Part shown: piece after piece, positions 6,362 through 60,180 of the stretch
Position numbering within the stretch: the first letter of the stretch is position 1
Layout: every line of letters starts with the position of its first letter
NCBI GenBank assembly: GCA_003971905.1
Contig: RSEE01000001.1
Span: 992,001-1,056,000 of the forward strand
Reading direction: 5' to 3'
DNA length: 64,000 nt
DNA from: Moniliella sp. 'wahieum'
Taxonomy: Eukaryota
Program-made: the position numbers and the translations under genes
The notes under the pieces: model-generated
What the model saw: only the letters and a program-made list of their open reading frames with translations
Told to the model about the DNA's origin: nothing
The model's database searches: none

Positions 6362-7673
6362 GGCAACGGGATGCTGGAGCAGCAGCAGAGGAGGAAGGAG
6401 GTGGTGGGAAGGAGAGAAAAGCGAGCCTGGGGCGGATGGCGTGGCGGCGGTTGGGCGCTGCGGGGGCGGCGCGCCCTGCTCCGTCCTGCTCCGCCACACG
6501 CACTACGCCTCAGTGTGGACCGGTTCCTGGGCCCTCTCCTCCACACTGGCCCCATGCCAACCCGCAGAGGCTGCGGGATCCCGATGTTGCGAAACTTTCA
6601 GAACGTGTGCAGATCAAGCCACCTGCGCTTTCGGCCTCCACATGTGCTTCCGGCTCTTCAGTCCATCAAAGCGTTTGCCTCCGCCCGCATTCTACACTGG
6701 CAGCACCCGGCATGTAGAAGGCCAGAGAGCACGTGGTTCCTGGTATATTGCATTGCACATGAGCTGCAAGCCAGAGAATAGGCCCTCCCTCATCAGGCGA
6801 AGGCCTCACGATGGACTTCTCCAAGAAATGCAGAAAAGGGGGAGCCGTGGGCTTGGGGTACGACCTGCTGCTACTGCCACTACGCCAGGGTGGCTCCACG
6901 CGGTACTCGCTACTAGTTACTGAGACTCTCAAGTCCAATGCAAGTACTCCAAGCAGGGGTGTTGCACTTGATAGGATAAAAAAGCCGATATACATCTCAC
7001 CCCGATAAAAAGGCCCAGGACAGCTAACTATGTGCCCCGCGAAAAGAATGTGCTGTGCTGAGGTGCTGAGGCGCTGAGGCCTCGGCACGATCTCAGTGGA
7101 CACCGATGCATGATGCCTAGCCAAGGCGGGCTGGTGCCTGCTGATGCACTGGCACCAAGTGGGGAGCGACATGGACACTCGCCAGAGCTTGGCTTGAAAG
7201 TGCAATTGAAACAAATGAGAAACAAATGATCTATTGCGATGCTGGAGACACACTGCCCAGATGTTGGTGATAAAAGGATGTGTCACACATGCATGTTGGG
7301 TACTGTGGCACTGTGGATGTGTCACCTGTGAATCATTAACCATCGCAATCATCTTAATCATCCACCATTATTCGGTAGCCACCAAGTAACTCGCAATTGG
7401 TGGCTGAGCCTCAGCGCTGACCATTCCAAGCAGAGCATCCGATCGATCGGCTGGACGAGAGCAAGAGCAACTGTACTGACAGTGCTACTAAGTAGCTGAG
7501 TACACTGAGTACTGGGTCTGAGTGCTGGCAGCCTGCTCCAGCAGGTCCAGCTGCTCCAGCCACCGTGTTAGGCGAGAGGATCAGCCAAGCGTCCCCGCTT
7601 CGTCCTGCATATCGCTCGCTGCGACCACCACCGCTGTCGGCTTGGCTGGATTAGTTGGCTCCGATTTGCTGTC

Positions 7674-10600
7674 ATGCTCCCCCCCGCACATCCCGCCCGC
7701 CGTTGACTACCCACGAACGCACGTGCCCCGCGTCGACAGCCTTGCCACCGCGCCGCAAGAAGCAGCCGCCACTCCTGTCTCCATCGCCTGCGATGGCTTT
7801 GCTCCTGCCCAACCTGGGCCTCAATCCGATCGCCAGCGCGCCGGACTCTGCGTTGTCGCCTGTGCCAGCGTCGGGCACTCCCCCTGCCCCTGCACCTGAG
7901 CATCCACCTGTCCTTACCTCCGCAGCTCCTGCGCCCAAACCCACGCGAAAGTCCTCCAGCGCTGCCCGCTCTACCCTGACTCCTCCCGACAACCTCAAGG
8001 AGCGTGGCCACTATCGAGCACGCAAGGACGCAGAGCGTGCACGCGAGCGCCATTTTGAACGTGAGCGCGAACGCGTGCGCGCCCACCTCGCATCCGTCAC
8101 CCTAACCACTCCGATCCCGGTCCCTGGTCCGGCTCAAGTCACGGCTGCTGCCGTTGCAGCGGGGCAAACGCCGCTTCCCTTTACCCTACCGACCCCAGCG
8201 CTGTCCACGCCAACTATTCCTCCAACATCAGCTTCCCCATCCCCTCGTCCGCAGGCTCAACAGCTTGTCCAGGCCCCTCCTCCGCAAACTTCGACCAGCT
8301 TATGGCAGTTTATGTTTAGCCCTACGTTGGGCTTTCGAAGGTCCACCGATGTATCGCCTTCCGAGCAACCCAATGTTGTGGCTGCCCCCTCGTCTGCTTC
8401 TGCCCCAGGTCCCTCCGCCATACCAAACACCTCGGGTTCCAAGGGAAACAGCCGTCTCCCAGGCCCTGATGGTCCCGTTCCCGTCCATGACGGTCAAACT
8501 GCCTCGTCGACTGGGGTCCCCGTGCGGCCCAATCCAAGATCGAGGCGGACCATTGCTGCGGCGTCCCAGGCCCGTACGAATGGCCCATCGAGGCGTTCAG
8601 CACAAAAATCCTCCTCTTCTCATGGAAGGAACCCTGCCACTGTGTCTACCGCTCCCGCACGGTCAGTTCGCCGTCGGCGTCGCCGAACTAGTCCAGCACC
8701 AGCGCCTAGGCCTATGACTATGCCTACATCCGCTGCTGGGAGACGAACTGCTGCCGCAGGTGCTCTGTCATCTACCGGTGGAAGGGACGAGCCCGCAGGC
8801 CTGGCTTCTCCTCGCCCCTCAACCTCTGTGCCACCTAATCCGGCTCTTCAGCGTACCTCCGTACCTTTGGGCCCTTCGACCGCGTTGCGCCCGCGGCGCA
8901 GCGTATGGGATGACATTGAACCCCATCCCCGCGCTATGATGGAGGATGAGGCATTCGCAATGCAACACCCGAGTAGCCAGCACTCCCTCTCCCTCCTACG
9001 AACCCATCCTCTGACACCAGTTGCCGTCCCCGCCTACAGTCACGACCCCCCACCTGCCTGGCAACCACGCAGCCCTCCACCACCGTTTTCCACCGACTCG
9101 GAATCAAACCTGGAGGAAGACTTGCCGAACCACCGTGGACACTCGTCTGTGGCCTCCTCGCTTTCGTCGTGGACGCGGCAACAGGCCCGCACCGCATCCG
9201 CTTTATCGTCATCCAGCGAGTCGGAACGCGGGTTCAGTTCCGAAGCAGAGGAGAGCGAATCCGTTCTTTCCCTCCAACACGTTACACCCGGCCACTATGC
9301 GCGGGAGTTCGATCGTCGTGCCGACCTGTCTCTTTCCATCCGGAATGCGAGCGAAACGGCCCGGGTCCAGAATCAAGCCACGGTCGTCGATCCTGCTTGC
9401 TCCAACCCCGATTTCGTTTTTCCCACGCGCGCCAGATCTTGGCGGGCGCATCACTGTCATGATCTCCCCAGTGCCAGTGAAGGCGAAAACAGAGACGAAG
9501 GGGAGGGAAGCGGATCAGCCCCAGAGGTGGAGCCGGACGTGGAAGTGGAACGAAGAACCCATCACACTTCGCGCCTGTCCGATTTGGCAGCTGCGAAGCA
9601 GGAGGGCATACGCCTGACTAGCCCCTGCGTTGACTCGCCTTCTCCCCCGGCGCCTTCGTCTTTGACCCGCCGATGGTTTCCGAGGGAGAGAATACTGGGA
9701 TCGACTCGTTGGGTAATGACCCGCTGACGAGTTCGGATGACTCGGTAGGGGAGTTGGGTCCCGAGTCCGGATGGACCCCGCCCAAGACGGGGCCGACTGA
9801 AAGTGAGACGGTCGCGGATGCGAATGGGTCCTGGGCCTCCACTTCATCCGAGAGGGAGGGAGAGCAATCCCCACCATGGCAAGACCCGGGGGATGAATCA
9901 AGCTACGATTCTGATTCGGATGCGGACTGGGAGGTGGAGCTGACTGCACTGGGGGAGATGCGTGCGACGGAGCGGCAAGAGCTGCGGGACGCGGCAGCGG
10001 CGTACTTAGCCCGTGCAGATGAAAGCAGTGACGACGACCACATGCAGGCGGCGAGGGTGCGACAAGAACGCCGGGAACGGTTGGCCCGTGCCTCCGAGGA
10101 TCGCCTTGCGCGACGCGCTGATCGAGTGGCTACTCCAGGCTTCACTGTGCCCGGCTGGAACGTCGAGCTTCCCCGTGCGCCCACGCCTCTGTACGATAGT
10201 GAGGGACACAATCGTGTGGCACGCATGCCTACGGCCTCCCCTCCCTCTAGTATCGGGTCGGAGTCAGACTCTGGCTCCGATTCTATCCTCCTCTCAGGAG
10301 TTCCTCCTCACGACGTAGCCGTAGCCCGGTCGTCCCCGCTTCTTCTTCCCCCAATTGCCGCGCCGCCCCAGGCACCGCCCCAGGACAATGTGCTGGTTCC
10401 TAACCCCCCCCAACCACCATCAAATTCATCCGAGCTGCGATGCGCACACTCCCTCCTTCGCCGCGCCTGTCCGTCCCATACCTCGTTTGGCCAAGGCAGT
10501 GAACCTTCCGGTCGCCCTCTGCTGCTCGTGCTGTCCCACTCGGCCCTTCTCAACTCGCCTTGGCCCGTGCCAGCGCCGACGCCCGTGCCGACTTTTTGGC

Positions 10601-11753: not shown

Positions 11754-12371
11754 TCTTGATTGTCGCGTTGGACGGTCCAGGGATGCAAAGCGATAGGTCT
11801 CCATCCTGTCAGGTTCCTACTATTGCAGCATATGGCATTTCGATCTCAATTCGTTCTCACTCGTTCCCTTTCTAGCGTTAAGCCTTAGTAGTCCTCCCTC
11901 CGGTCTCTCCTCCCCCCCTGTGTCAGCGGCACGACATACGTCACTGGCATGTCACTCCATGTTCATCGTCATGCTGTCTACGACTGCGTGCTTCTGATCT
12001 CCCCCCTGGAATCATCGGGCTCCCCTTTAAAACCGAACCGCCTTCTCCTCTGTAACTCTTTCTCACGCTCCAATGTAATAGCACACACCGTCGTTCAAAC
12101 CGATGGGCTGTTGTAGTGTCTGCCATGCTTCTGTTCATTGCATTGCCATGTGTCTTTCTCCCCAAATCTGAGGACCATTGAGAGGCAGATCATGCAGTCA
12201 GGCCCCGAGGGCTCAGGCCTAATGGGGAATGAAAATAAAGGGCGAGGAGCAATCGGGAATGGGACGACTAGAACACCCGAGCCCAGTCTGGCCAGATCAT
12301 GCGAAACGGGGCCAACGGAGGGTAGGTTAGACCAGGGGGAGGACACAGTCACCCCGCGTCCAGCAGCCAGC

Positions 12372-12818: not shown

Positions 12819-14820
12819 GGCGGCAGAAGGTGGTGGGAGAGCAGCAGCCACCATGCGCTGGGGCCAAGTCCAGGCCTAGATGAGCAAAAGCATGGTCACT
12901 GTCTACTGAATTTGTCGGGGGCTGGTTATGTAAGCCCGCAGTGGCCCTCTGTCCGTACTCAGTGCGATGCATTTGCTTGGGCACGTGGCCCATCGATCAT
13001 CTGAACGCGATCGATGATCCCAACGTTGAACGTTCAGGTTGAACTCTGAGATCTGAAAGTCTGAACGTTGAACCAGGCCGAGAGGGCGCCGGGAGCTTCA
13101 CCGCTACAAATCGGAACTCCGCCTCCGTTGCTGCCACTTTCTTCCAGTTGGCGCTGGCGCCGCCGCCTCTGTGCTTCCTGCCACCTTCATCTGGGGCAGT
13201 CGAGCTACAGGTCCATATATCGGTTTAAATACAAGAAAAAAACGCCAGGAATGACCACCTTTCGCTCACCACTTCACGTTGCGCCCAGATGAGAGACAAG
13301 CAAGAGCGTATGATTGTGCAAAAAAGTATACGGGCGTGACGGCAGGTGCCCGAACCCGGCCGACCCACCCTCTCCCCTTTCCTCCCTTGCCTGAGTTAGG
13401 TCTACGTCAAAACTAGGCTGCCTTGTCTGAACGTTGAACAAACGTTGGGTTCAAACGGGGGATGTTCCCATCGATCTATGCAACTAGGATCAAGTCGATG
13501 AAGTCCCTTTCGTGCAGCTGAGGTGATCCTTGCGTGAGCATCTGAGTCCCTAATTGCATCCTGCTTCAATTAGTTGGTATTTGGTCTTGGACACAAGTGA
13601 GCCCTCCGAAGTTGAGCCAACGGGTCTGGACGACAGTTTCCTGATCTCTGCGCTTCCTGTTTTCGTTGTGAGATTCTCCGCTCATGCCTGATTGCCCGAT
13701 TCCAGATGAGAGCGAAGAACCTTCCTTAGTGCCTTGGGCATTTCTGTGGGTTTTGAGTTCTCCCGCTTGCGGCTGAGTGTGGGAACCTTTTCGCCTTGAT
13801 CTGTTCTCCTTTCAAAGAAGTCGATGATCTCGATTCTCGTTTCCCCTTTCTCCGTGGAGTTGTCTATCCCTTATATAGTTTCCTACCTGTATGAGCCTTG
13901 ACCCATGTTCCTTTCCTCCTAGCGAGTCATTTCGTCTTGTTCGGCTTTTCCTACGTCTATTTCGTCTTCTCTGTCCACATTTCCTCTCTTCCTCTCGTAT
14001 TTCGTCCTTGTACAGCGTCCTTTGTCAATCCGTCGTTAATCCACGGGGCAGCGTCCGTGTTACGCTTAGTCCACCAGTATTCCCTCCGATCTGCTTCCAG
14101 TGACCACCGCATCTTCATTCCGTATCAATTGGATAGGACATTCATTGTCGTCGATCTCCACCTATTGCTAGTCTCCGCTGTGCGGGGGTCCCCTGCGGCG
14201 ATTTTACAAGAGTTGAATTTTGTTCTATCAGGTAGTACCTGTCCTACCTCGTCTTTGCCTATATCAACCTTTCTCCCAACGCGTTAGAGCCACAGATTAT
14301 CATACAAGCTCTCTGGTTAAGTCCTGCTCGTTCCCGTGTGCATATACGCAACTTGCCACGCCCTCAATTCAGAGGCCTCACTTCCTCTGTAGCACCGGTC
14401 GTTACTGCTACAGTAGTGTTCGGGCTCAATCAAGCGTGAGTACTGAGTGGCCTGCCCTCCTTCAAGGGAAAGCACCCCTAATCTATGGGTCGGGCTCCTG
14501 TCCGGGGACCGCCCATGACGAAAAGTCCCAAAAGGACAGCAATATAAACTGTGGGGAAAGCATCTCCCGGTTCTATTTAGATCCAATATCCAGCGGCCAT
14601 ACCTTGGCCGGCCCTTTCGTCATCAGACCATACCGTGCACTCATCGTTGTCAAGGACATGGCCAAGAGTCCCGCAAGGCCAACACTTTTATCTCTTCGTT
14701 CGCCGCTGCAAGGCCAATTGGATACCCCCACACAACAAAACATTATCCACTCACCCTACTGCTATGGCTTGAAAATAAAAAGCCGCAACACACGTTTCAC
14801 ATTTTGGAACTGTGGGGTCG

Positions 14821-14891
14821 CCGGTCACCGGTCACACGGTCACCGGTCACTAGTCACTAGTCGCTTGTCAGTGACCGGTGACCGGTGACCG
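14821..14891. repeat. Heptamer array with inverted repeat: (CCGGTCA)n (CTAGTCA)n ... (TGACCGG)n
   Basis: 15-bp perfect arms cggtcaccggtcact (14837-14851) and agtgaccggtgaccg (14870-14884). Confidence 0.9.
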
Positions 14892-15664
14892 CCCGATGTT
14901 CAATTATTAATTAGGAGAGTGTTTTGGCCCCGCACCCGTCCCGCCGGATCCAAGCGTCAGCTCCGTCCTAGCGCAGCCCGCGGACATCCCGAGAGTTACG
15001 GCAGCGGTACCCCCTCCTCCCGACCTCCCCGCCGAATCGGCCTGCAGACGCCCGAGACTTCAGGCTTCAGGGGAAAAAGGCCTGAAGCTTGAGCCTGAAA
15101 GTGAGGCTCAGGCCTCAGCCTGAGGTCCTGTGGGGTCTGTGGGGCTCTCAGCATATTGGCGCACCGCTAGCACTGAGGCGCTCAGCCTGGCCAGCAGCTG
15201 ATGGTCTCCGATCTGAGCACAGGCAAGCCCAGTATGGATGGCACTTGGGCGGGGTAAAAGCGCTCTGGGCGGCCTGTAGGTCTTGGTCGTACATGGACCT
15301 ACTGTAATATAAGGGCCGTAGGATTCAGGGTGACTAGGTGACTGACAGCCATGTCCTACCCCAACGGCGGGGGCGCGTGAAAATATCAAATGCGTGTCGC
15401 CCAGCACACTGCCGCCATGGTGGCACCTTGCCGCCGTGGAGCGTGCTACGTATTTCGTTGCCTCAGTCCCCAGTGAACCAGTGACGCAGAAGCTGAAGCT
15501 GCAGGCTACGAAGAGTTGGGGTCGCTGGTTGCAGCAGGCGGCTGGATTCACGTGGAGCAGGCTCGCGTGTACAACAAGTGCGTCCGTCGCCTGCCCACGC
15601 CTCCTGCTCCCGCGACACCCACCACCACCACCACAGCCCCGCTCCGCTCCGCTTCCTCTGCGCC

Positions 15665-21341: not shown

Positions 21342-22688
21342 GGGCACAGGGGATGGTGGGAAGCTGGGATCTGCGCGGGAGCATGAGCAGTGATGTCAAC
21401 GTTGCCCGCATTGTTGTTAGCATGGCCAGGCATGGCCACGGCCAGCGCTGCGGCCTGCTGCTTGCTGCCCACGCAACATTCGAGTTCAGGCCGAAGCGAA
21501 CAGCCGATCGGCAGAGACTGGCCTGCTGGGGCGCAGAGCTGCGAGGGGGCTCGGGCCGGCGTCTCCACACTCTCCGCATTTCTCCCGCACGGCGGCTGAG
21601 CAGTGCGGCCCAGTGCGGCCCAGTGCAGAACCATGCTGAGCCTCCGCGCTGAGGCTGAGTGTGCCTGCTGTGCCGGTGCTGTGCCAGGCACTGCCCATGC
21701 AGCTGCGAGCAGCAGCCACAGCGAGTCACAGTGCCACACCAGTGCCACACCAGACCACACCTCCCATTGGGTAATTCAGCAAATACTCACAGTCACTACT
21801 GACTTGTGTTCTGTCCAAGTCACTCTGCTCACTAGCTCACTAGCCACTCCCGCTACTCATTACATAGATTCCGCCCCGTCATCCGCGTCATCATCTCACC
21901 ACCACGCCAGTGCGATTGCATCACCCTCGAGGACCATCATGCATCAGGACTCCAAGTCTCCATCAGCTAACGCGCTAACGCTGTCACAGTCAGGGTTAAG
22001 GCGAGGGAGACCAGAATCGGGACTAGGCCAAGGGGCGTAGCAATTGTTCGTGGGGAAGAAGCAAGAGCAGAGGACATGATGCGAAAGTGGAAGACACAGG
22101 GAAAGAGCGAGACGCTCGAGACGAAAATTGGAAATGGGAGCGATACAGCCATACTATGACAACGTATGCTAACGTCCATCTGGGACCCACTCACAGTCGA
22201 ACAGTTGAGAACCCACTGCACCTCTACCGCCACCTCATTGTTGGGTCCGTTCCCAGTCTTCACCATTGGGGGCGGGGAATAAAATCGAAAATGTTTAAGG
22301 CCACAGGGAAATTGGGCCAATGGGCCGCATCAATGGAGTAAGGGAGCTGCCATAAACTTGCCTAGTTCGAGCACTGAGGGAAGCTGGAGACTGACAAGTC
22401 TTGGGGGAGGAAATGGAGGTAAGATGGACATCGTCGCTGCTCGTAGCGGTGATAGTGGTGGTGAGGAGGTGTGGAAAGGGGGCGCAGGGACAGCGCCTGG
22501 GGCGGACCAGCACACTGTGATCGATAATTAATCCTGCTTCCCAGGATGCAGAGAAATACGGGCGGAATGAGCATCCGGCGCGGCCAGCCGGAACAAGCGG
22601 CCCAGCTTAGGTCAGCGCTGGGTGAAGATTCCCGTGCGACTTCGACTGCGGCTTAACCACCAGCTAACTGCCCTCGTCGTTGCCAGCC

Positions 22689-24612: not shown

Positions 24613-25116
24613 GAGGGAGGGGGGGAGAACAGGGGTGGTGGAGAAGAAATAGCTTCCACGTGCCACGTTGGGTGGGTTGCGTGGATGCGGGGCGCTCACA
24701 GGCTCCGCTCTTGCGCGCTTTTACGGCTGCGACCCGGGGGATTCCGCCAGAGGAGTTTCAACTTTCAAATGCAACTGAATACGTTTCAACTTTCAACATT
24801 CAACTGATTCTTCAACACGACCGGAAGGCCCCGGGACGATCCAGTTTCGAGCGAATCTGCACCACACTGCTTGCATCTCTACGTGACGAGACGAGGTGCC
24901 AATAAACGTGTAGTCATTCTTCATGCCAGAAAGATTCAAAGGGGCACGAAAGGCATCCGAAAAAATGGAGCGAGAGAAGCCGTGCACGGTTCACGGTCAA
25001 AGGAAAAAAGTGTATAACGGGTATCAACGAAAAAAGACAAAGTAAAAACAGGGCTGCACTCAATTGCGAGCAGCAATGGTGGATCAAGGGAAGGGTGAGA
25101 TTTGCCAGAGAAATCA

Positions 25117-29359: not shown

Positions 29360-30032
29360 TCCCATGCAGCTGGTCACAACCACGTTTGTGAAGATTGCAG
29401 GCACCACGCGTCATGCCATCGTCGTAGCCAATCCAGGACATTAACATAACAAGGTTCATAGAAACGAGTGAAGTCATCATGATCGATCTCAAAATCCCAT
29501 GTGAGCTAGTGAGACCGGGGGCCAGGATGAGGGAAATGTGTTCACCCTATTTTGCAGTTGGCAGAATCCCTTCGCTGTTGCTTTGGAGCGTAAATGCGTA
29601 AATGCGAAGGAATACGTTCTTCGCTCTCCAGTGCGCCAACCCAAGGGTAGTCCAGTGCCGATGCGGCCCTCTCTCATTATGAATCTCGATTTCTCACACC
29701 ATCAAACCCCCTTCAGTGGCTTCTATCCCGAAAAATATATATGCCGCTATTGACAAGGAAAAGGAGATGTGAGGAGCTTGCTCGGATGCGTAATACACCA
29801 ACCGCTACGCATGCAAACACTTGCCCTTATGTCTTTTGCCCTCACGAGAATCATCATTGCACACACATCAGAGATGAGAAATGAGAACTGGGAAATGAGA
29901 AATGAGAGACGAGACGAGAGATGAGAGATGAGAAGGATGAAAATCAGTAGACGGATGAACAGAGCGGCCCGTTAGGCCATACTGTAGGGGGGAACGAGAG
30001 GGAGGAGAGGGGGGGTAACTAACTCTTTTGCT

Positions 30033-35027: not shown

Positions 35028-36730
35028 GCGGGCGAGCGGTGTCGGAGGGGATGTGTGCAAGGGGGCTTGCATCAGAGGCGTGCTCTATAATGCTGGCAGC
35101 CCCGGCCGAAAAGCCGCGGGCGAGCGTAACAAAAAGAGCGCAGCGCTCTCCGGCTCCTCCGGCTCCTCCTGCACTCGTACAGCTCCTACACCTGCAGCGC
35201 CTCGCCCACACTCCTGCCCTGCCCGCCCTGCCACATGTCACACGTGCCTGTCACATGTCAACACCCAATGACACATTTCACACCCCCATCATGCATCATG
35301 CATCATGCATCATGCACGCAGCACAGGCCACAACCCGCCGCAGCACTGCCCCCCCGCCGCAACGATGGACAGGCAGCTCACTTGCACAGAGCCGCTTAGA
35401 CCCAGGCCTTAGGCCACAGGCCTTGGGCTTGGCCGTTTGACGTGCCCACTATGTACTGTACAGGCACGTCCAGCAGGGTGTGACGGTGGCAAGCAGATTG
35501 ATGCGGTGCCAAGGGGCGCCGTTGTCGATTCTCGTCGATTCAGAAATGAAAACGTGTGTGTACATACCGTCCTACATTCGATGAAGAAGCCACCGGGCCC
35601 TCGAGCTTAGGGCCCAGCCAGCAGCCATATGTGCCTTTTGGCCACCCTCCCAGCACGCGATCCTCGTTTTTCTTAGTCTGGACGCGATCGAAAGAAACCA
35701 AGTCGAGAGGTCGAAGAGATGGCCAAGCTCTGTTTTGCCACTGGTGGGCACGAGCGCCATTATCGATTCCCCTTCCTCTCCAGCAGAGCGCATCGGCATG
35801 TGCGCGCACAATGCATATGTCTTCAGGGCAAGCCCACAGACAGTACTATTAGAGATTATGCTTCATGCATCAGGCCCATCAGGCCAGGAGACAACACAAG
35901 TGTGTTTATGGGGCCCAAAAACGTCCACACATATCCCTGTGCTACCATACACTGTATATAACAACCTCTGCGTTCTGGGGCGCGCAAAAGCACACTACAT
36001 GGGGAAGAGATGCTTTGCGCTATACTCTGCATAATGGAACTGCGGACAGCTTTGACGACAGGAACGAGGCCTATGGAACGGTGGACCAATGGGGAAAGAT
36101 GGCCGTGTATCGTCGCCATCAGCACGAGGACAGGCTGGAGCAAAGTCCCAGCAGATCGTGCTGTAGGCCCGGTGGCCTCTTCGTTGATCATTTGCGTCGA
36201 TGTCCTCCCTGAGTCTTTCCCAAGCGCACTGCTTGTCACACGTTTCGTCACTATAGTACTCCCAGATAGCAGATCGATGCAGGTCGATGCCCAACCGATT
36301 CACCTCCCCTAACCACTGTCCCGTGGTGCTAGGGCCTGATTTCGTACGGAGCTCCCGGTCCGTCCTTTCCACACCGCTTCCTGCCCTCTCGGCTGGCGCT
36401 GCCCAATGACCTCTGCCCCCGGTCATCGTCTCACACTTTGAGTACGTATTGCGGCGCCTCATCAGCGTTCAACCCCAATTGCTCTCTCTCCCCATCCAGC
36501 CAGCTAAGAGCGGAGAGCAAAATAAAAAAACCGATAACCGTGATACAGGCGGAGCATTGAGGAGATTGTGGGAAGAATGAGTGCGGAGGCCGCTGAGCCT
36601 GAGCGGTCTCCATATGGGAAGAACAGAAGAAGGAAAATACAGGATGACGACTACTCGAGGCGGTCGTAACACAAAAAAGAAGCAAGAAAGTAAGGGGGGG
36701 GTACCGCTTCGCCTTACGTGCCATTGGGCC

Positions 36731-38235
36731 TTAGGTTGCCACTGCCGGAGGCATGGCATCGATAGAGGCAGGCACACCAGACGGTTCGTGCGCCTTGACC
36801 TCCGGGCTGCCCACTGCGGTGCTCCCCTGCGACGGGACGACGGTGCTCCCCTGCGACGGGACGACGGTGGCGGAAGAGGTGGCCTCCAGCCAGCGTTGGT
36901 GAGATGTGGCAAACGATTCGCCCGCACGATGCTCGAGGTTGACCCGCCAGAGGGAGAAGATGACTCAGGGGCAACGAATAGTACCGCCAGGTGGTCCAAC
37001 GGAAAGTAGGGCTGATGTATTGGCGTACGTGCCGGCAAAGTCCTCCGTCATCTCGCGCCGCAGCTGCTTAAACTCGTCCGTGCGGTCCGTCAGAACAGCC
37101 GCGACACCCCACCGTGTCGCTTCCACCATCTCATCCGGCCCGATTCACCGTCCAGACCATCACGTCCTTCCCAGCCGCCTTCACCTCGCGGATAAACTCT
37201 TGTCCCGAGGCAGGAACGAGCGAGGCAAAGTACATACTGAAGCCGTCACAGGCATCCCAAAAGTACTGTTTGGCCAGCGCAGGCGAACCACCAATGTGGA
37301 TCCGACGAAGACGGGGCACATGCTCTATGGCCGGGGCAATGAACTTGGGGTGCCAGAGCCCGAGGATGATCCGTGGCGCCAGGAGTGTCTCAAAGTCTTC
37401 GTGCTGGCTCACTACAACCCTTCATCAACCGGAACAAGCGATCGGATCGTTGTCTGGCTTGATATCGATCTGGTCGTAGTAGAGGAAGAGTTCGTCAGTA
37501 AAGGGATGGTGCCGTCGAAAACAGCGCGAAAACACATACGTTGGCTTTGACGTGACGGTACTCGGGCTTCATGAGAAAGTCACACAGTCATTGAATGTGG
37601 GATTTGCTGGACGGGCTTGTGCGCCGTGCGCACATGTTCCAATTGGCCATAGTAATTTTGCTGAGCAATCTTACCCGAGCCATTCGTTGTCCGGCACAGC
37701 ACAGCATCGTGGAACATGACAATCACGTCATCCGCCGTCATGTGCACGTCTGAGGGTGGGAAATGGAGTAGACGAAACACGGCATGGAGGGGAAGCAAAG
37801 AAAAGAGGAACATGAGTTATGGCCCACAGGCGATAGTTCGCGCAAGCAGGGCACATGGGAGCAGCATAGAACATCTTAGGCCAGGGACGGCCCCGCCTCA
37901 GATGGACAACAGTAGGATGAGAGGATGGGGGTTACGAACCAGTCTCAACCGCATCGGCTCCGTCCTTGGCGGCCATCTCAAAGGAGGCCATGGTGTTTTC
38001 TGGGAACGCAGCTGAAGCCTGTCCGGAAGCGTCTAGCAGTCAGTAGCCCCTTCTGGGCAGCCAGAATCACTGATGCTGGCGGCATGACGAAGTCAATACT
38101 TACACCGCGGTGGCCCCAACACTCTGGCATCTTAGCCGGGGCAACAATCTCGGACTGAAGAGTCTGTATGGGGAGGGGAGATCAGTACAGAGGCGGAACC
38201 GACAAGGACCAAGGAGAGGTGCTCACAGTGGGCAT
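36731..38235 (-). CDS. Glycerophosphodiester phosphodiesterase family (Pgc1-like phosphatidylglycerol phospholipase C)
   Basis: PECWGHRG|ASAAFPENTMASF, DVHMTADDVIVMFHD, IDIKPDND, RIILGLWHPKFI and VMVWTVN. Several introns. Confidence 0.9.
36817..36869. repeat. 24-bp perfect tandem duplication encoding TVVPSQGS twice in the GDPD tail
   Basis: cggtgctcccctgcgacgggacga at 36817-36840 and 36841-36864. Confidence 0.95.
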
Positions 38236-39184
38236 GGTTCAAAATGGAAATGCGGGTAAAAGGATGATCGATAAGCTCCAATCCAATGCGAGGCGGGGGA
38301 TAGTTACTGGTTGCCGATTAGGTGGCCGCGCGTCCAACGGGTTGTGTTGAGATTGGGGGCGGCGGCTGTGGCTGAGGCTGAGTCTGGAGCGGAGGGTGGA
38401 CGATAGTAATGAAGTACACACGTGCAAGTGGTGGGCAGGCAGGATGCTGGCTGAGTGTTGGTGGTGAAGGCTGGGAGAGGGGAGGCAAGTGCAGGCCGGC
38501 CGGAAGCAGGGGTGATGGGAGTAAGCAGCGGGCAACCAGGACTGCTCCTCCCAACATGCACACTTGCGTTGGGCATGTCTTGCCTCTGTTTTCCGCCAGA
38601 CAGTGCGAGTCATCGACTGTCGGCATCATCGCACCGCAAAGCGCTATCGGGCGGAGCGCGTATCACGGATCGGTCACCCATCCGCTATCATATATCATGC
38701 ATAGCATGCATCATGCATCATGCATCATGCATTCACCGAGCGGGCCAGACTGGCTTGCCATGGCTTGACACTGCCCCTGTTCGGCCGCATGGCACGTGCA
38801 TCGCCGAGCGGGCTCTGACTCGTGCACTACTCGGAGCCATACAGCCGCCTCGGCCAAACGATAGGATGCACTGCAGTACTCGGACGTACTCCGTGGCGAC
38901 CTCTATCGTTTCAACTTTCAAGCCACTGCCAGCAGCCTACCAAACGATTCCTGTTGTTCCACGTCGCTGGCCAGCACCGCGGCGTCATATCCGCTTTTGC
39001 CCCCACCCCCGCCTCCACATCCTAGCACCGTCGATCGCACATCTCCCTGGCGTCCCATCTGCCCATGGCTGGGAGCAGGCATCCCTATGCCGGCTACGTT
39101 GATCTACGAAAGCAACATCCTTTGCCGTCTTTCTTGTGTGCAATGGAGATTCATAAGGTCGTCAGGTAAGCAACGCTTCCAACC

Positions 39185-40580
39185 TTAGGCCTTGTGCTGG
39201 TTGGTCAGCACCTTGGGGGGCTGGTTGTCGCGGGTGAACGAGTCAATGCCAGCGTACGTCGACTCGGGCTCGAGGTGCTCAATGCGGAGCAGCTGGTTGT
39301 ACTTGGCCACACGCTCCGAGCGAGCGGGCGCACCCGACTTGATCAGGCCCGCGCCGAGACCAACGACAAGGTCGGCAATCGACGTGTCCTCCGTCTCACC
39401 CGAGCGGTGCGACACCATGACGGCCCAGCCATCCGACTGGGCGAGCTGCGCAGCCTGGATCGACTCGGAGATGGTGCCAATCTGGTTGATCTTGAGCAGC
39501 AGACCGTTGCACGCCTTCTTCGAGATGGCGTCCTTGATCCGGAGCACGTTGGTCACAGTCAAGTCGTCACCAATGACAGTCACGCCCGCATTAGCGCGGA
39601 AGTGGCTCCAGGCCTCCCAGTCGTCCTGCTCGAAGGGGTCCTCAATCGAGGCAATCGGGTACTTCTTAATGTAGCCAAGGTACACTTCAGCGAGCTCCTT
39701 GCCAGTGAGCCACTTGCTGGGGTCCGAGTTGGGGTTCTTGAAGTCAAGGTCGTACTTGCCGTCCTTGTAGAACTCAGACGAAGCAACGTCGAGAGAGATG
39801 TGGACCTTGCCCGTGTAGCCAGCCTTCTCAATGGCAGCAGTGAGGAGCTCAAGCGCCTCTTCAGCGCCCTCGACGTTGGGGGCAAAGCCACCTTCGTCAC
39901 CCACGTTGGTTGCGTCAATGCCGTACTTGGCCTTGATGACCGACTTGAGGTTGTGGTACACCTCCGTGGCAATTTGCATCGCCTCCGTGAAAGTCTTAGC
40001 CCCCGTGGGGACAATCATGAACTCCTGGTAGGCGAGGCGGTTGCCAGCGTGCTCACCGCCGTTGATAACGTTGCAGGCAATGCTGGGCAAAACGTAGGGG
40101 CCAGTGATGCCAGCCAGCTTGGCGTAGTACTTGTACAGGGGAAGGCCCTCCTCGGCGGCACCGGCCTTGGAGGCAGCCGTCGACACACCGAGGATGGCGT
40201 TGGCACCAAGCTTGCCCTTGTTGGGGGTACCGTCAAGCTTGATCAGGAAGTCGTCAATTGCCTTCTGGTTGGTGACGGGGATGCCCTCCTTAATGAGAGC
40301 GGGGGCAATAATGTCGTTCACGTTGGACACAGCCTTGGTGACGCCCTTGCCCATGTAGGCCTTGCCACCATCACGCAGCTCGACGGCCTCGTGGATGCCA
40401 GTCGACGCACCCGAGGGCACAGCAGCACGGTACAAGCCCTTGTCAGTGACAAGGTCAACCTCGACAGTGGGGTTACCACGCGAGTCGAACTGAATGAAAG
40501 GGTCAGCATCGGCAGAGAAACCAAACAAGACAAGACGTTCCACATACAATCTGGCGGGCGAAGATGCTCTTAATGGACAT
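39185..40580 (-). CDS. ENO1: Enolase
   Basis: [11 protein letters not shown] | intron 40490-40547 | [29 protein letters not shown] and SHRSGETED. Intact frame. Confidence 0.99.
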
Positions 40581-41334
40581 GGCGAATCGGCGTGAGACGA
40601 ACACGGTTGGTGTGGGAAAGAGCTGGTATGAGAAGAGTGCCGCACCAGCTTTTATACGCCAGCAACGATGGGCGCGGTTGTGCGCCTGCCGCACCAGCCC
40701 AGTCCAGCCCCCAGGCGGTCCAGGGGGCCCCTGGGCGCAATCGGAAGCTGAGTGAAGCTCGCCAAGCTGGAGGCCACGAAGGGGGGGACGGCCCATGTGA
40801 GGCCACTGGCCCCGTGCCCCGATCGGACGGTACCCCTGGCCCGTGCGCCCCCTCGTCTGCTCCGGCCCCGTGCGAGGCCGCAGCGGGAAGGTACGCCCCA
40901 CTGGCGCCATGCCAGCGCCAGGATTAATTTCAAACTCCTGGGTGCCAAAATCCGCACCACCTCGGCCAACTCTCGTTCGGTCGTCGAGATTGAATCAAAT
41001 CAGACTCAGCCTCCCTCCAGAACAAAATGCCCCCCCCCCGCCAACGATGGTCCGTCCAGTTGGGCTCTGTCTTGTCCAGCCGCTCTCGCCCCCTTGCCCC
41101 TGCCTCGAGCATCTCGGCTGACTCTGTCCAGGCAAAATCCCATTCATTGTTGGGTGGAGCTCGGAACGAGGCACCGGCCATCAGTGCACACTACACTGTG
41201 CACAGTCGCCCCTCTGCGCAGTTCGCTTCTGCTGACAACACGTTCTGAGCCTGGGCACCTGAGCCTGCCTGAGCATCACACCAGGCTGACAATATCATCC
41301 TGTAAGTTCGGTCACCATCGGGCGCCAGATCTAC

Positions 41335-41790: not shown

Positions 41791-44246
41791 TCCCCCCACC
41801 TGGCCACTCCGGGGCTTAGGTTTTGGCGGCGATTGAGCTGGAGAGCTTTTGAGGGAAACCGTCGGTACCGTCCTTGGGCTGGTGGGGATGTGACGCCACA
41901 CGGGTGTGGTAGTGTGCGCGGTATAGCCCAAGCCCGGATCCTTCCGGTGCATTCCTTCTTCCAATATATTCCTTCTAGGAGGGCAGCAATTATTCTCTAG
42001 CCTCTGTAGCTGATATGTAAAATGCAATCTACCAAGTGCCTCCTCTCGGTCTTCTACACGTGCTAAATACACAGAGCTGTCGGACGCGAGAGATGCTCAT
42101 TTCAGTAGTGAGGAGAAGGTGCACTAGACTCTGATCCGATGACTTGTTTTAGTTTTCCCGCCACGAAATGAATGTGGCGCACAGCTGGTATATATTTAGC
42201 GGTATAGATATACTAGCGCTCTTGCATTCAACGAGGAAGTGCCATCTTTTCTTCCAGCCATGCTGCTTTTCGCAGGCATCACACCTCCTTTTCCCTCTTG
42301 ACACGTGTCAGAATTTACTTGCAAGTCGGGTTTTGTTACGGGCTGCGGTGGACCCGAGATGGTCCGAGATCCAAGCTAAGGCCCACCTGCTCCGCACACA
42401 TGCCCACAGTAAAGCGTGCTCCCCATCCCAACCAAGTGCGATGACGGGGTTGGTTAAATTATGTATACCGTGGCCCGAAGGGCCATGCATCCGCACGACA
42501 ATAGTCGGCCACCGCTCAAGTCCAAGTCGGCCGGCCGAAATGAAGCCACTGAGCTTCCGGTATCCTTGCAACGACTGTCGCCTCAGTCCCTGTCTCGTTT
42601 TCATTTCCCGGTCGCGCCTGCGGCGACCAACCCCCACTCTTTTGACTTGTCTTCCTTTCTACAATCTAGCCAATTGATCCAGTACAGGCAGCCTCCTCTT
42701 GTGTTAGCTCCTGACTCCTCTTCCGACGTCGTTCTCCAGCACTCCATCAGCCCAATGGCGCGAGCCTTCCTTCAGCCGCATCGATTTCCTGTCCCTGTCT
42801 GGTCTCAGTTAAGGCAGTGTTTGACCGCCACTGCCTCCTCCCGCCCCTAAGTCCCGGAGGCTTCATCAGACACGTTACTACGGCCCAAGCCGGTGCAGAC
42901 GCAGCCTTGCCACACGTGCACAGCCGCCCCACCAAAGGCCTCTCCTCGTTCCTAGCTCCGCTCGGATCCACCAACTAGTCTAAGCCCGAAACTACCGTGA
43001 GTTGACTTACCGTCTCCTAAGGGATCGTACCCCCAAACCCCGGGCGACCTCCCTGGCGGGGCCCGCCCCGTGACAGGTCTATAAACAGGAGGAGGAAAAC
43101 CGACAACAAAAGAGTATATAGCCGGACAGCTTTTTCCTCAACGCCCTTGATAAGCAGCCTGAGTGGGGGCGTCATCAGTGCTGCTGCTGCTCGTAGCAAC
43201 GAGGTTCCTTTCACCAATATATGTTGTCGGTCAATATAACAGCTCGTGCGGGTTTTTAAATTGGGGGTGTATATATTGCAGGGCGTCCCGACCAGGTCAC
43301 AGAATCTGTCACGATGCCACGATGCCCCATGGCGCATGTCACACCTGGTCACCATAATGCATAATGCATAACACCGTCACGCATCACGTGGCTATCAAAC
43401 GCTGTGACGAGCCGGCGCCTGATGGCAGTGGTGGCGGCCTCGGAGTGCTGTGCTGCCCAGAGACCGCGAGCGCGAGCTAGCGCTTCGCGCTTATTAGCGC
43501 TTAGCTAGCCACTAGGTCACTGTACGGGTAACCGGTACGAGGTACCTAGGTACCCAGGCACTGATCGTGCTGATGCATGATGTATGGTGAATGATGCAAT
43601 GATGTTAACCGAGTAACCACTGTAACTGCGTGCTGAGTCTCAGCACTGAGCGAGTACAAGTACTGAGTACTGACATGCGGTGTATATGATAGTGGAGGTG
43701 CTGAGGCGGGGCGCTGAAGCAGCGTGGCCTGGATCGAAGCTGGATCCTAGAACAGCAGCAGCGAACAGCCAGTCGCAGCCACCGTCCAGCGTCCCCCAGC
43801 ACCAGTGTTGGGCATGAATGGGGGGCGCACGGCGCACTCCAGTGAGCGAGTCAGGCCACAGGACGCTGTGTTGTCGGCTGCGACGCACTGCCCAACAGGC
43901 GGTCGCTGCGTGCAGCCGCTCAGCCGGAGCGCTCATCTCAGCGCGCTCAGGCCAGGACTTGTGACAAAAGTACGCTCGTACCTACACAGCACCGGTCACA
44001 GCGTTCACAGTGCTGCTGCTGCGCTGCGTGCGCTCCCTGCCTGCGGCTGCGTGCTGGCGCACAGAGCAGGCAGCATGCACTGCCCCCGCACTGCCTCCCT
44101 GCTGCTTGCCAGCCATGCGATGCATGTGATGCGGGCGGTTGACGATGCCCAGCACAGAGCTCTCCACACGCTCTGTGGTCTGCTTCCCCGCCCAGTTGCT
44201 CGCTCTTGCCACCCCTCGTCACGCCTACTTTCGTCCCACCACCAGC

Positions 44247-51765: not shown

Positions 51766-52635
51766 GCGGAGTGGCGATGGGGCAGAGCGATGGAGAGTCG
51801 ATGGGTTGTTGTGAGTAGTGGTGTCGACGGCGGCCAGGCCGAGGGTGTTGCTCTGGCCAGGCGTGGTGTGGCGTTGGAAATGGGATCTGGGATGGTAGGT
51901 CGGATATAGCGCGGACGGCAATGCTACCCAAGCGCTCGAAAGCACTGCGGCCTGGTGCGGAGTCTGTGCCTGAGGCCTGAGTTCCACTTGGCCCTCTCGT
52001 TGTACTTAGTCACTGTTACACCGGTGGCTGTGGTGGGCCAGGGTGGGCTGGGCGGATGGCACCAGAGGGGCAGTGTGGATGAGCCCAAGCATGCAACTCA
52101 TCCTCCCTGGTCCCTTTTTGTCCCTCGTATGTGCGTACTCGCGACGTAGGACTCAGAACGCAGGACTCAGTAACACTCAGGAGGACTCCGGCCTCCGGGC
52201 TAACTCAGGGTGCTACTCAACCACTCAACGTTCAACTCAGTTCCTCAGTCTCAGGGCCCCAGGTGCTCTCAGTACTCTCATCAGTTGCATCAGTACTCAG
52301 TGTACTCAGTGCGCTCCGTACTCTCAATACTCACTAGTCGGCAACCATGACACGCGACACGCGTGGCAATCACATGTTCGTCACGTGCGTAGGCAGGGGC
52401 TGTCTCGATATGCGTGCACTCTCGGACCCAGGACGCAGGTTATACTTTTTCGCTTGCGCTGGCTCGAAACAGGATATACTCCCCTCTCGGATCCAGGCTT
52501 GGGTGCGTAGCTATGTGTTGTGCATAGGATGTTGAAGCACACTTCATGATTGCATGATTACACACCCACCCACCCTGCACATGCTCTCTACGCCGAGTAT
52601 GCCCAAAGGGAAAGAAGATGAAAGGAAGCCACCGG

Positions 52636-52711
52636 GGTATTCTGCATGGTGCCAGTTGCCTGTTTCTCCAACAGGTATTCTGCATGGTGCCAGTTGCCTG
52701 TTTCTCCAACA
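52636..52711. repeat. 38-bp perfect tandem duplication
   Basis: ggtattctgcatggtgccagttgcctgtttctccaaca at 52636-52673 and 52674-52711. Confidence 0.95.
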
Positions 52712-54090: not shown

Positions 54091-55480
54091 GATGGACAGA
54101 CTGCTGACCACATAGACAAAGCCGAGGTGATAGGGTGGGGCAGGCGCAGAGACGACCGGGTAAGGGTCGTGCAAAACGAAACAGATAGGCGGTGGGGGGC
54201 GGGGGAGGGGCGAGGAGCGCTTGGAAGAAAAGGGGGAGGAGGAGCGAGGGGGTGAGGGGGCGGTGGGATGGGTAGAGCGGGAGGTGGCCTGCAGCCGGTG
54301 CTTTTATATGCCCACCGTGGCCCAGCATCGTCCAGCGAGCCAGGAGGAGGTGAGGCCAGCAGGAGGTGAGTGTGGGCGCCCCAGCCGACTGGAGAGCAAG
54401 GACGTGGTGCTGCCGCCTTGCGTTGAGCGGCTCAGGTGTCTGGTAGCCCACGCTGCCGCCGTGCAGGGTCGCCGCAGGCAGCCGAGCTGCAGTGGCCCAG
54501 TGCCTCATGGCCCGGGTGCTGCACTGCGCCAAGCGGGCGGCGGGCACCCGCACGGGGCCAGTTCGTGGTGCCCAGACCACCGGCCCCCGGCCCTGTGGCG
54601 GTGCGCCCGCCGCAGCCAGCAGGCTGCCACCCTGCGCTAAGCGCGAGGCCCCATAGCAAGCAGCAGGGCCCAAGCGCCTCCAGCCCGGATCGTGTCACAC
54701 CCACCGACAGCAGCCCCCTGCTGCCAAATTTCTTTTCTTTTTTTTCCACACGGGAGCCGGCGGAATGAGCGAGGTGAACGTTGAACGTTTGAACGTTGAC
54801 CCGCACGCGCAATTCCGCGCGGCTTGAAAAGGCTTGAAGCTCTTGAAGGCTTGAAAGAGTGGCATGGTGACGGGGTGACGGCGTGAGGCGCGCGTGACAC
54901 GTGACGCGTGACGCGTGACGGTTGATGCTGGCGCAGAGCTCAGCCGGAGCGCCGGCCGGAGCACAGAAATAGGGAAGCGTGGGAGACTTTCCGGATACCC
55001 CGCAGGGGCAGGGGCGGCCGGCACGTGGTTTCATATTTCAGCCGCTGGGAGCTGCTTGGGCGGCTGGTACCTGCTGGTTGGGACATGGTGAGGCGTATGT
55101 AAGCGGGCGGCGGTAAGCCGGTGGGGCTGCAGGCGGCGCAGGCGGCGGCCAAGCCCAGGCGTCACGCGTCACGCGTCCTAGTCACTGGACTAGGGACTAG
55201 TCTCTGGATAGCTTGACTAGCCAGCAAGGTGTCAGCTGGTCAGGGCCCCGGCGGGCACGGGGCCGGTGTGGGCAGCGGCGGCCGAATGGCCGATGGTCGA
55301 TGGTCGATAGCCAATATCCAATCCCAATGGCGCGCCGCATGGCCCAGGCAGCCCCCCAGGCCCCATCAGGCGGAATTGGCAACACAGCCAACACCACCGC
55401 CACTCGCCCCGCTTGCCACCGCTCGCCCCCGCTTGCACCCCATCTCTCCCATCCGCCTGCCTCCTGGCGCCAGTGCGGCC

Positions 55481-56976: not shown

Positions 56977-57437
56977 TACAACCTCTATTTTCCTTTTGTA
57001 CCCTTTCAATCTGGACATTACATTACCATCGCGCTCACGTTCGTGCCCAATTGGGCCGCATGCACAGGACCAAGCGGCGCCAGAAAGCACGATTCATGCC
57101 CATGAATGTATAGCCCAAATCTTAGAATGACTTTCAATGGAATGGGTCCCAATCGGGGTCTCTAAGCGATACTCGTATCAACGTTATCCACAAGCTCGAG
57201 AGAGAGAAAAGAACATGAATGGCTGTCGCGGAGGCGGCCAGGGAGGGTAAGAAGTGAAGCTTGAAGGAGACTGAGTGCTGAGTCAGATTTGACAAGGGAA
57301 GACATAGCCAGAAAAAAGTCAAAGCCGGGTCATATGTAGAGAGCATCGGTGTAAGGCCAAATTCTCAGGCTTAAAGGGTCCGAAACGTGTGGGAAGATAA
57401 AAGGCGGAGCGTTGGGGAATGAGCATACTGAGAGCTT

Positions 57438-57472
57438 AAAACGGAAACGGAAACGGAAACGGAAACGTGAAA
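57438..57472. repeat. (AAACGG)n microsatellite
   Basis: aaacggaaacggaaacggaaacggaaacgtgaaac. Confidence 0.9.
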
Positions 57473-57566
57473 CTTGGCTCCTGTGTTCATCGGCAAGGTT
57501 GCTGACCGGTGACATGTCGGCCGCGATGGTGGACAGCCACTTCTAGCCACTGGCCAGTAATCCGGC

Positions 57567-58401: not shown

Positions 58402-60180
58402 GGTTGTGGTTGATCGGTGGAGCGGAGAAGTGTGGGTGTGGGTGTGTTTGGGGAGGGAAAACGGACGGGCGACAGCTGGGCAAGCGGAGGGGAGGCTCTA
58501 GAGAGGCCACACAACCAACACAATAAATGAAGAGGAGAAAAGTCAGTGGGTGTGCTTGGAGGGGGGACATCAAACAGGCTGTTCTGTGTGAAATAGTACG
58601 TAACTGGAAGGAAGATTGGTGAGGATGGAGGCCGAAAGTGAAAGGCGGAGGCGGTGGTGCGGACAAAGTAAAAGGCCAAAAGAAGGAAGAGCGTGTGCTT
58701 TAAATACTGTGTGTTGGTCTGTGTGTGCCCTCTGGCTCTCCACACAACCCACCCTCATACGCCCTTACTGAGGTCTCGTCCAAGGCGGATTTCTTCCGGA
58801 CAGAGGACGTTTCAAAAAACTTGTGTGGCCCAAAGGCCGCTCTAACCTTGAAAGCGGTAGAGCCCAAGTGTGTGTGGCGTAGGAAGACAACGCCCACGAC
58901 AGTATTATATGTGCCCTTAGCCCCGCCTGCCCGCTATCCCCGCTGTGGGCGGTGTCGGGCTCCGCCCCCCCTGCGCACCACCCCTCAGACCTAGGCCCTA
59001 GGCCTCAATAATGGGCCTCGTTCAATATCCACCCCGGCCACCCCTCTCCAACGCAAGGCAAAACGGTCTATACGCCGCATCGCAAAACACACTGTGCCCA
59101 CCACTCCCGGATGCGACGGACGAAGAAGAAACCTTATCTCGCCGCTTTTCACCGTTACCGGCGCGTCCCGATTACCGTCAAAGTTTTTTGCCGTCGCCGC
59201 CAGCACCCTCGCGGCTGACTACTGTCTGCGCCCAGCGACCCCTATCGCCCAAATTGCATGCTATATACGTACCGTTACTTCCACCGCACGACAGAAGCTC
59301 GATCCTCCATCCACCATCCCTCTCCCTACCACCAGCGCCACTCTCCATGGAGAGAAGTGTAGGCACGTGGGCAAAAAACACGCGCACACCACTCTCTCAA
59401 TCGCAATGCACGTTGGTCCCACCCCCTGCTAGATACCCATTGAGCTCAAATCGCGCCCAAGCAGCTTGGCAGCGTAAGCGGAGTTACCGGTTATGCGGTT
59501 ACGCTTTGCCAAGCAGGGAGGGCGCTGGCGCGGACCCGCGCGGACCCTCCGCGGTATGACGAATACCAATGTAGAGGAGGTCCTGCGTCACACTTTGGCA
59601 GCGAGACACAACAGCAAGCTCACGGTCGAACTCTCTTGAGAAGGCCAGGGAGATTAGCTTCTTGTCCAACGGGTGCAGTACAGGCCAAGCATACTAATAG
59701 TCGCTGCAGTACCCATAATTGGGTTCATTGCTTATTTGGCAGGGGGGGGGAGGGACAATTGAGCTGAAGAAAATGCGGCTTGATAGGAATGCGGGTGGCT
59801 AGGCGGCCACCATGGCTCCCGATGCGTATGAGGGGTTTATCCCGTAGAGAAGAGCGAGGATATCGCTCGGGGAACAGGTACTGGAGGGGGTGAGATAACA
59901 TAATACGTGGGAATCAGACCCTTCGTGGGAGCGATCGAGGAGTATCGATGACGAAACGTTGGAGAGCGTTGGTAGGGATACACCTGTGAAACCGATCATG
60001 CTGGTTAAGGATACTGGCTTTGAGGATGAAATGATGATGGGCCAGCGGCGTAGCATTGCATGAAACGTGCTGGAGATGAAAGCCGATGCGGGTGGAACTA
60101 AGACATCTATATTATTGAGGTTTTGCAGCAGCATCTTTCAGCCCGTCATGCGCGTCATGCCATCATGGGGTTGCGTACTG

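Follow-up and report, generated by a model that had tools for sequence, protein, structure and literature searches.

Simple-repeat surveys usually stop at hexamers, and a heptamer class with a strict unit rule would therefore be overlooked. Among the described systems closest to such a class are the promoter repeats of yeast, reportedly studied by Vinces et al. in 2009, which are AT-rich and follow no unit rule, and the cyanobacterial short tandemly repeated repetitive (STRR) heptamers, which form intergenic arrays of period 7, sometimes with inverted arms. Here we describe heptamer arrays in a 64-kb window (the whole stretch of DNA that was analyzed, positions 992,001 to 1,056,000 of contig RSEE01000001.1 from Moniliella sp. 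'wahieum'; eukaryotic nuclear DNA of ~58% G+C), and this single window is the basis of all window counts below. In their most regular form, the arrays repeat a palindromic hexamer A-NNNN-T plus one C or G at a period of 7 nt, in contrast to the AT-rich yeast repeats, so that TCA or TGA (together TSA) stands at each junction of two units. Unlike the STRR heptamers, which are prokaryotic, often linked to small mobile genes and made of other units, they are eukaryotic and for the most part one-armed, and we saw no gene associated with them.

The TGA half-site itself is familiar from the bZIP sites of the AP-1/CRE type (TGA-C/G-TCA, TGACGTCA) and from the b-binding site of Ustilago maydis (TGA-N9-TGA); those half-sites form dyads or lie 12 nt apart, whereas here they are direct and recur with period 7. 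A first reading of the letters of the window (the sequence-only reading) had noticed the arrays and pointed to ATTCACG-type heptamer arrays in Ustilago, but our literature search, judged by the titles and abstract openings of the papers listed, found neither those arrays nor any description of arrays like the present ones in fungi. Variable short tandem repeats in promoters have been reviewed (PMC3899988; this and the other cited articles are drawn on through excerpts), and they share with our arrays the head-to-tail arrangement of short repeats in promoter-containing intergenic DNA and perfect copies that imply instability. Tandem repeats themselves are a known kind of sequence; what is new is that these obey a unit rule that is unexplained and statistically strong.

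Period-7 spacing and palindromic cores

All of the patches cited in the sequence-only reading were found again at or near the places it gave, and the autocorrelation peak that it proposed was confirmed: pairs of TSA at lag 7 numbered 107 in the window against 64.3±8.3 in 50 dinucleotide shuffles (z-score 5.2). No excess was found at lag 14 (64 pairs, 64.0 expected). The lag-7 excess lies wholly in same-strand pairs, with 38 TGA-TGA pairs against 15.9 expected and 41 TCA-TCA pairs against 16.0, and TCA and TGA are the top two of the 64 trinucleotides for lag-7 enrichment. The bases adjacent to TGA showed no preference.

Coding and non-coding DNA were separated with a rough exon map derived from codon statistics, which labels 43% of the window as coding (27.3 kb), leaves 36.6 kb of non-coding DNA in 30 gaps and superseded a stricter first codon-usage map with 20% coding; the gene map is accordingly approximate. 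Pfam matches in 25 of the 55 predicted exon open reading frames (ORFs) support the map only partly, and none of the 135 ORFs of at least 90 aa lying in the non-coding gaps matched a Pfam family. The non-coding DNA holds 69 same-strand TSA-N4-TSA pairs, compared with 18.9±4.1 in 100 dinucleotide shuffles, and 21 cross-strand (dyad) TGA..TCA pairs, which is no excess over the 19.2 expected. The predicted coding DNA holds 8 same-strand pairs (13.9 expected), none of them palindromic (0.9 expected), and 6 cross-strand pairs (12.4 expected), in agreement with the earlier impression that the patches are absent from coding sequence. As a function of spacer length, the same-strand count peaks sharply at 4 nt, with a weaker excess at spacers of 5, 6 and 8 nt (36, 30 and 34 pairs against about 18-19).

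Longer series are enriched as well. Seven same-strand chains of at least four members spaced 6-8 nt apart were found where ~0.12 would be expected, all seven in non-coding DNA, as are all 11 strongly periodic lag-7 segments. Exact lag-7 runs of at least two copies number 28 (3.8 expected) and those of at least three copies number 4 (none expected), the highest number of such longer arrays at any lag of at least 4; 17 of the 28 runs include TCA or TGA, and period-7 arrays detected by Tandem Repeats Finder reach 9.6 copies. Short tandem duplications are in general excess at lags 5 to 12 across the window, which is consistent with a slippage-prone genome.

The most distinctive property of the pairs is the palindromic N4 core. 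Among the same-strand pairs in non-coding DNA, 33 cores are palindromic, against 1.2±1.1 expected and a maximum of 5 in 100 shuffles, which upholds the palindromic-core bias put forward from the letters alone. A rule of this strength must have a specific process or factor at the DNA level behind it. Over the whole window, 34 of 79 same-strand cores (43%) are palindromic, compared with a baseline of 147/1853 (7.9%) and with 4/28 for cross-strand pairs. When all 64 words were tested in the form word, palindromic 4-mer, same word, TCA (17/41) and TGA (17/38) stood out, followed by CAT (9/39), a word that arises from the ATGCATC arrays by rotation; the remaining words gave at most 4. Thirteen of the 28 exact lag-7 runs consist of a palindromic hexamer and a single further base, and 11 of these 13 have the form A-NNNN-T plus C or G; A..T is the outer pair in 12/13, and C or G is the odd base in 12/13. 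Furthermore, non-coding palindromic hexamers of the A....T class carry an outward GA or CA flank in 112 of 340 readings, while the other classes do so in 10-13%. Eleven of the 16 possible palindromic 4-mer cores occur, and identical units recur, with AACGTTG at three separate loci, ATGCATC at two and AGTACTS (S, C or G) at three.

Palindromes as such are close to expectation window-wide, both odd and even, except for odd palindromes of arm length 6 (29 vs 13.8), indicating that the effect resides in the arrays and not in palindromes generally. A control set of 1.09 Mb of unrelated, mostly bacterial loci, obtained by an enolase search of metagenome contigs (80 loci), showed palindromic cores in 42 of 499 same-strand pairs (8.4%), the same as in cross-strand pairs (42/488), and only 4 of its 94 lag-7 runs belong to the A..T plus C/G class.

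With respect to genes, the palindromic pairs lie in 9 of the 30 non-coding gaps; thus the grammar described by the sequence-only reading is real, but calling it window-wide was an overstatement. Gaps holding at least one gene 5' end contain 31 of the 34 palindromic pairs and all 11 arrays of the A-NNNN-T plus C/G class, but these arrays are spread over only 6 gaps and convergent gaps make up 22% of the gap DNA, and, counted by gap, the bias toward 5' ends (promoters) does not reach significance. In the approximate gene map, the 16 non-coding chains showed no orientation bias with respect to the closest gene 5' end, 6 of them reading TCA and 10 reading TGA on the sense strand. On this count we dropped the idea, prompted by two divergent gaps, that sense-strand TCA marks initiators or transcription starts, and the lack of orientation relative to genes likewise led us to drop a role of TGA every 7 nt as a stop codon in all three frames.

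Anatomy of the arrays and their surroundings

The arrays are head-to-tail direct copies of 7-nt units in which the C/G base is uniform within each array. This uniformity points to growth by direct duplication of whole units; fold-back copying would instead have produced alternating C and G. Perfect multi-copy arrays stand at 35287-35316, where (ATGCATC)4.3 follows a TCACA cluster (patch 35238-35316); at 38705-38732, where (ATGCATC)4 follows a TCATATATCA unit (patch 38688-38735); and at 14871-14891, 54900-54920 and 55159-55177. Perfection over 3 to 4.3 copies implies that these duplications are recent.

Where neighboring cores differ, the change can be symmetric: ACCGGT lies beside ACTAGT at 14837-14862, and TATA lies beside TGCA cores (ATATAT to ATGCAT) at 38688-38728. 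One-step intermediates also exist, since in the mixed patch at 15058-15130 the core GGCT stands between GGCC and AGCT, one substitution apart, and CTTG and CACG are found too. This patch runs from two copies of CTTCAGG through TGA units with AGCT and GCC cores to TCAGGCCTCAG, with several strand flips. The claim that the core changes while TSA persists had rested partly on patches picked by their TSA; five imperfect arrays found by periodicity alone had 4 of 14 mismatches in TSA where 6 were expected, not a significant difference, and do not demonstrate that TSA is kept better than the core.

Two whole-array inversions were observed. At 14816-14870, ACCGGTC copies are followed by (ACTAGTC)2.4 and then by decaying units, forming a 5-member TCA chain, and directly to the right, at 14871-14891, lies (ACCGGTG)3 as an exact inverted counterpart; the two together make a 75-nt hairpin, in which the TCA arrays from 14825 to 14870 face (ACCGGTG)3. 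The predicted fold of 14812-14896 has -29.1 kcal/mol (z -5.0), and none of 200 shuffles was equally stable. The other inversion lies in a divergent gap, where GGTGACGG in 2.6 copies leads into (ACGCGTG)4.3 at 54891-54920 (patch 54866-54925, a 5-member TGA chain) and (ACGCGTC)2.7 stands as its inverted counterpart at 55159-55177, ~240 nt away. Neither a dispersed repeat or transposon of at least 24 nt, nor a miniature inverted-repeat transposable element (MITE), nor an inverted-terminal-repeat pair with a 7-9-bp target duplication was detected in the 64-kb window, and an origin of the arrays from dispersed repeats or MITEs was rejected on this basis.

The remaining arrays vary in regularity. 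A loose TGA patch at 7405-7525, with AGCGCT at 7410-7420 and AGTACT-type units at 7470-7525, lies ~130 nt upstream of a long plus-strand ORF (7655-9724) and does not fold beyond expectation (z -0.3). The degenerate TGA array at 13022-13074 is of the AACGTT-G type (units TGAACGT, TCAGGT, TGAACTC, TGAGATC, TGAAAGTC and TGAACGT; a 5-member TGA chain; z -1.6), and a short AACGTT-G patch (TGAACGTTGA) follows at 13428-13453. In the divergent gap at 21597-21860, a loose TGA cluster (21597-21660) and a TCA cluster (21726-21860) occur among 10-11-nt repeats. Two arrays have non-palindromic cores, namely the TTCAAC-N array at 24758-24815, between the cyclophilin and VID27 genes, and the TGAGAAA/TGAGAGA array at 29868-29945, in the convergent gap between the Rpt1-like and CSL-type genes.

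Farther along, (ATGCATA)2.7 at 43353-43371 is the sole palindromic hexamer array with A as its extra base, and it is followed by a degenerate TGATGCA patch at 43571-43598 that is inverted relative to the array at 35287, by (AGTACTG)2.1 at 43647-43675 and by a TCA patch with AGCGCT and AGCGCGCT at 43915-43950. (AGGCCTG)2 lies at 51968-51982. The TCA patch at 52150-52335 is strand-asymmetric, ~185 nt long and variable in spacing; it consists mainly of CTCAG and AGTACTC-type units, contains TCAACGTTCA and TCAGTACTCA, and folds no better than shuffles (z +0.5). To the left of the ACGCGTG array stand (AACGTTG)3.4 at 54766-54800 (z -4.7 for 54768-54805) and, at 54825-54857, a CTTGAAGG-type array of period 8-10 in which TGA is conserved. 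(CCTAGGC)2.1 at 58990-59004 is the sole palindromic hexamer array with C..G as its outer pair. Isolated 10-mers of the form TSA-palindrome-TSA are present at 57255 (TGAAGCTTGA) and 57503 (TGACCGGTGA), the pair spanning 57255-57512, and further ones at 14437, 21937, 27670, 35863 and 46942.

Other repeats accompany the arrays. A 38-nt unit is exactly duplicated in tandem (2.0 copies, 100% identical) at 52636-52711, in the same non-coding gap as the TCA patch at 52150-52335, and an exact 24-nt tandem repeat of 2.2 copies lies at 36817-36869, in or adjoining a predicted minus-strand GDPD-like exon (8 codons per copy if coding); we counted these two exact duplications in favor of slippage. The longest hexamer array, (AAACGG)5.7 at 57439-57473, is in the convergent gap between the Bsd2-like and acid phosphatase genes, beside the two isolated 10-mers at 57255 and 57503. 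GGTCGAT, which can also be read as ATGGTCG, is tandemly repeated at 2186-2199 and 55286-55308 and contains neither TCA/TGA nor a palindromic hexamer. The 8-mer ATGACGAA, a CRE-like half-site, occurs at 9 loci (1.4 expected; 89% non-coding) and CGTTCAAC at 9 loci (1.8 expected), and both may be real cis-motifs. Within a predicted plus-strand exon, the 12-nt repeat GAGGGTGATGTA reaches 5.7 copies at 5864-5931 and probably encodes a 4-residue protein repeat.

The intron-split housekeeping genes of the window include TACO1/YebC-like, eIF3d, VID27, proteasome Rpt1-like, CSL-type factor, enolase, RPS7 and Bsd2 and those for cytochrome b5, an RRM protein, mitochondrial S15, cyclophilin, GDPD, PI-PLC, a TEA/ATTS factor, acid phosphatase and RNA12. 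The non-coding gaps measure 1 to 3.6 kb, which is long for this fungal group. Against named proteins, the enolase ORF (39188-40651, minus strand) reaches at most 82% identity (Tilletia), and because its best matches are from Tilletia, Sporisorium, Violaceomyces and Malassezia, the predicted host, judged from sequence, is a Ustilaginomycotina-like basidiomycete. The usual N-terminal residues are missing from the ORF, and upstream of a conserved 10-residue stretch no start codon is present; probably the gene opens with a short first exon, followed by an intron close to the 5' end. Among the 80 metagenome loci that this enolase retrieved, and that served as controls, there was no close relative, the best having 67% identity and most ~50%, probably bacterial.

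Possible origins of the arrays

The account that we prefer, and to which we give about an even chance, is that the arrays are heptanucleotide microsatellites grown by replication slippage, in which template switching keeps the units self-complementary and sometimes inverts whole arrays. On this account the patches would have arisen by mutation and would not be arrays dedicated to binding. The sequence itself shows direct repeats, perfect copies, palindromic cores and inversions, and from these we infer the following course. Slippage during replication would lengthen or shorten the arrays in steps of 7 nt. As the units are self-complementary except for the C/G base, template switching between neighboring units or strands would homogenize half-units, and a core could then change symmetrically at two positions (ACCGGT to ACTAGT, ATATAT to ATGCAT) and stay palindromic. 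Occasional switching would invert the spacer or a whole array, turning a TCA array into a TGA array and building the long hairpin at 14816-14891 and the inverted pair at 54891 and 55159. The odd seventh base may spare the arrays where perfect palindromic arrays of period 6 would be destroyed, and if promoters are affected at all, this would be a side effect, as it is for other tandem repeats in promoters.

Precedents exist for the switching component. Template switching between short inverted repeats homogenizes the arms and inverts the spacer (PMC8604942), and quasi-palindrome mutations arise in highly transcribed yeast DNA (PMC3820800). Applied to the present units, arm homogenization and spacer inversion as described for inverted repeats and quasi-palindromes would preserve palindromic cores and exchange C for G (PMC8604942, PMC3820800, PMC7202029). 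The cases in these excerpts are single inverted repeats and mutation clusters, whereas here there are tandem arrays, and they do not predict the T-S-A rule (PMC8604942, PMC3820800, PMC7202029). The sequence-only reading had offered scars of fold-back or template-switch synthesis as one of its two explanations; growth by fold-back disagrees with the uniform C/G base, and template switching is in keeping with the palindromic cores, the symmetric changes and the array inversions.

Several observations weigh against slippage and switching as the whole explanation. Slippage alone gives no sequence rule, yet the A-NNNN-T plus C/G class, which comprises only 224 of the 16384 heptamers (~1.4%), accounts for 11 of the 28 lag-7 runs, and the preference for an A..T outer pair and a C/G odd base is not accounted for even when switching is added. 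One may speculate that survivorship contributes, in that a weak A:T pair beside a C:C or G:G mismatch destabilizes slipped hairpins, so that such arrays are destroyed less. The excess of TCA and TGA extends to arrays without palindromic units and to those with a period of 8 or 9, and the isolated 10-mers TSA-palindrome-TSA, with fewer than two units, are enriched as well; the latter could be array remnants or, alternatively, have arisen in some other way. Of 10 patches, only 3 form folds more stable than those of their shuffles (z -2.5 or lower) and 7 do not, so a hairpin is not what the patches have in common. Furthermore, because the control loci show no such rule, a lineage-specific factor or process is at work. 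The most unusual reading, which we hold unlikely, is a lineage-specific, sequence-anchored process that adds 7-nt increments, each a TSA direct repeat with a 4-nt palindrome, to intergenic DNA of a Ustilaginomycotina fungus; its agent would be a T-N-A-targeting transposase or nuclease, domesticated or active, or a selecting chromatin factor.

The other explanation offered by the sequence-only reading, arrays for a factor that reads TGA half-sites, belongs to a wider view of the patches as functional cis-elements, in which TGA/TCA recurring every 7 nt would be the target of an oligomeric regulatory or chromatin factor, or the different hexamers would be targets of several factors (ACGCGT, for example, as an MCB-like box), and in either case promoter activity would be set or nucleosomes kept away. 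We regard this as doubtful. The confinement of the arrays to non-coding DNA, the 31 of 34 palindromic pairs in gaps with a gene 5' end, the top rank of TCA/TGA for lag-7 enrichment among the 64 trinucleotides, the recurrence of identical units at separate loci, and the retention of TGA while the spacing ranges over 6-9 nt (patches 54825-54925 and 52150-52335) all speak for it. But a homodimer site, such as a bZIP-like one with dyad TGA..TCA and constrained flanks, would need an excess of dyads, and the repeats are direct only (dyads 21 vs 19.2), while the bases beside TGA are unconstrained and 3 bp gives too little specificity. A reader of TGA only is further disfavored because it would not make the cores palindromic, and eleven palindromic cores in one format would need many factors with a single architecture. 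Nor does the view gain from the unoriented chains (6 vs 10), from a 5' bias that is non-significant at the gap level or from a TSA not demonstrably better conserved than the core (4/14 mismatches), and the perfect arrays point to recent turnover. A small foldback-like mobile hairpin element with heptamer-array arms, a eukaryotic counterpart of the STRR repeats, is very unlikely in our judgment: the inverted array pairs at 14816-14891, 15058-15130 and 54891/55159 and the stable folds of 14816-14891 (z -5.0), 15058-15130 (z -2.5) and 54768-54805 (z -4.7) would fit it, but 7 of the 10 patches fold no better than shuffles, the arrays are mostly one-armed, and they show no conserved core, target duplication or dispersed family. 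Finally, nothing was found in favor of an assembly or sequencing artefact, which we consider extremely improbable, as the arrays sit within unique sequence, their unit varies between loci and they avoid coding DNA, which would not be expected of an artefact.

Accreted cut-and-repair footprints, in which a transposase or nuclease with a T-N-A target duplicates TSA around a palindromic filler of ~4 nt and so adds 7 nt per visit, are improbable in our view, although the minimal form (a 4-nt palindrome flanked by a 3-nt direct repeat) does exist in isolation and TSA is retained with fillers of 3 to 6 nt, with the sharp peak at 4. Known footprints have matching properties in the excerpts of PMC4561436: mariner/Stowaway excision leaves target-site duplications plus bases of the element ends, Ac/Ds footprints are palindromic, and the 3-bp duplication of mPing (PIF/Pong) must have T first and A third but accepts C or G in the middle. 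What is shared with the arrays is thus a direct repeat around a short, often palindromic filler and a T-N-A target (PMC4561436). Transposon footprints are single events, however, and PIF/Pong excision is usually precise (PMC4561436), whereas here we see eleven filler types, which would demand many element families, and perfect multi-copy arrays, with no transposon, MITE or matching inverted-terminal-repeat pair in the window. Runs of identical units, such as four successive TGCA cores, favor copying over independent visits, and hAT palindromes derived from flanks would be expected to yield fillers of the TS'S'A type (S', the complement of S), none of which was seen.

If the arrays are mutational, as in our preferred account of slippage and template switching, they are a natural system for the interplay of the two processes and could reveal what allows near-palindromes of odd length to survive in places where perfect ones would be lost. 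If they are enzymatic or regulatory in origin, they mark where that activity works. Should the sequence-anchored process be true, the arrays would represent a new class of intergenic repeat in eukaryotes, from which one could read where an enzyme or factor acts.

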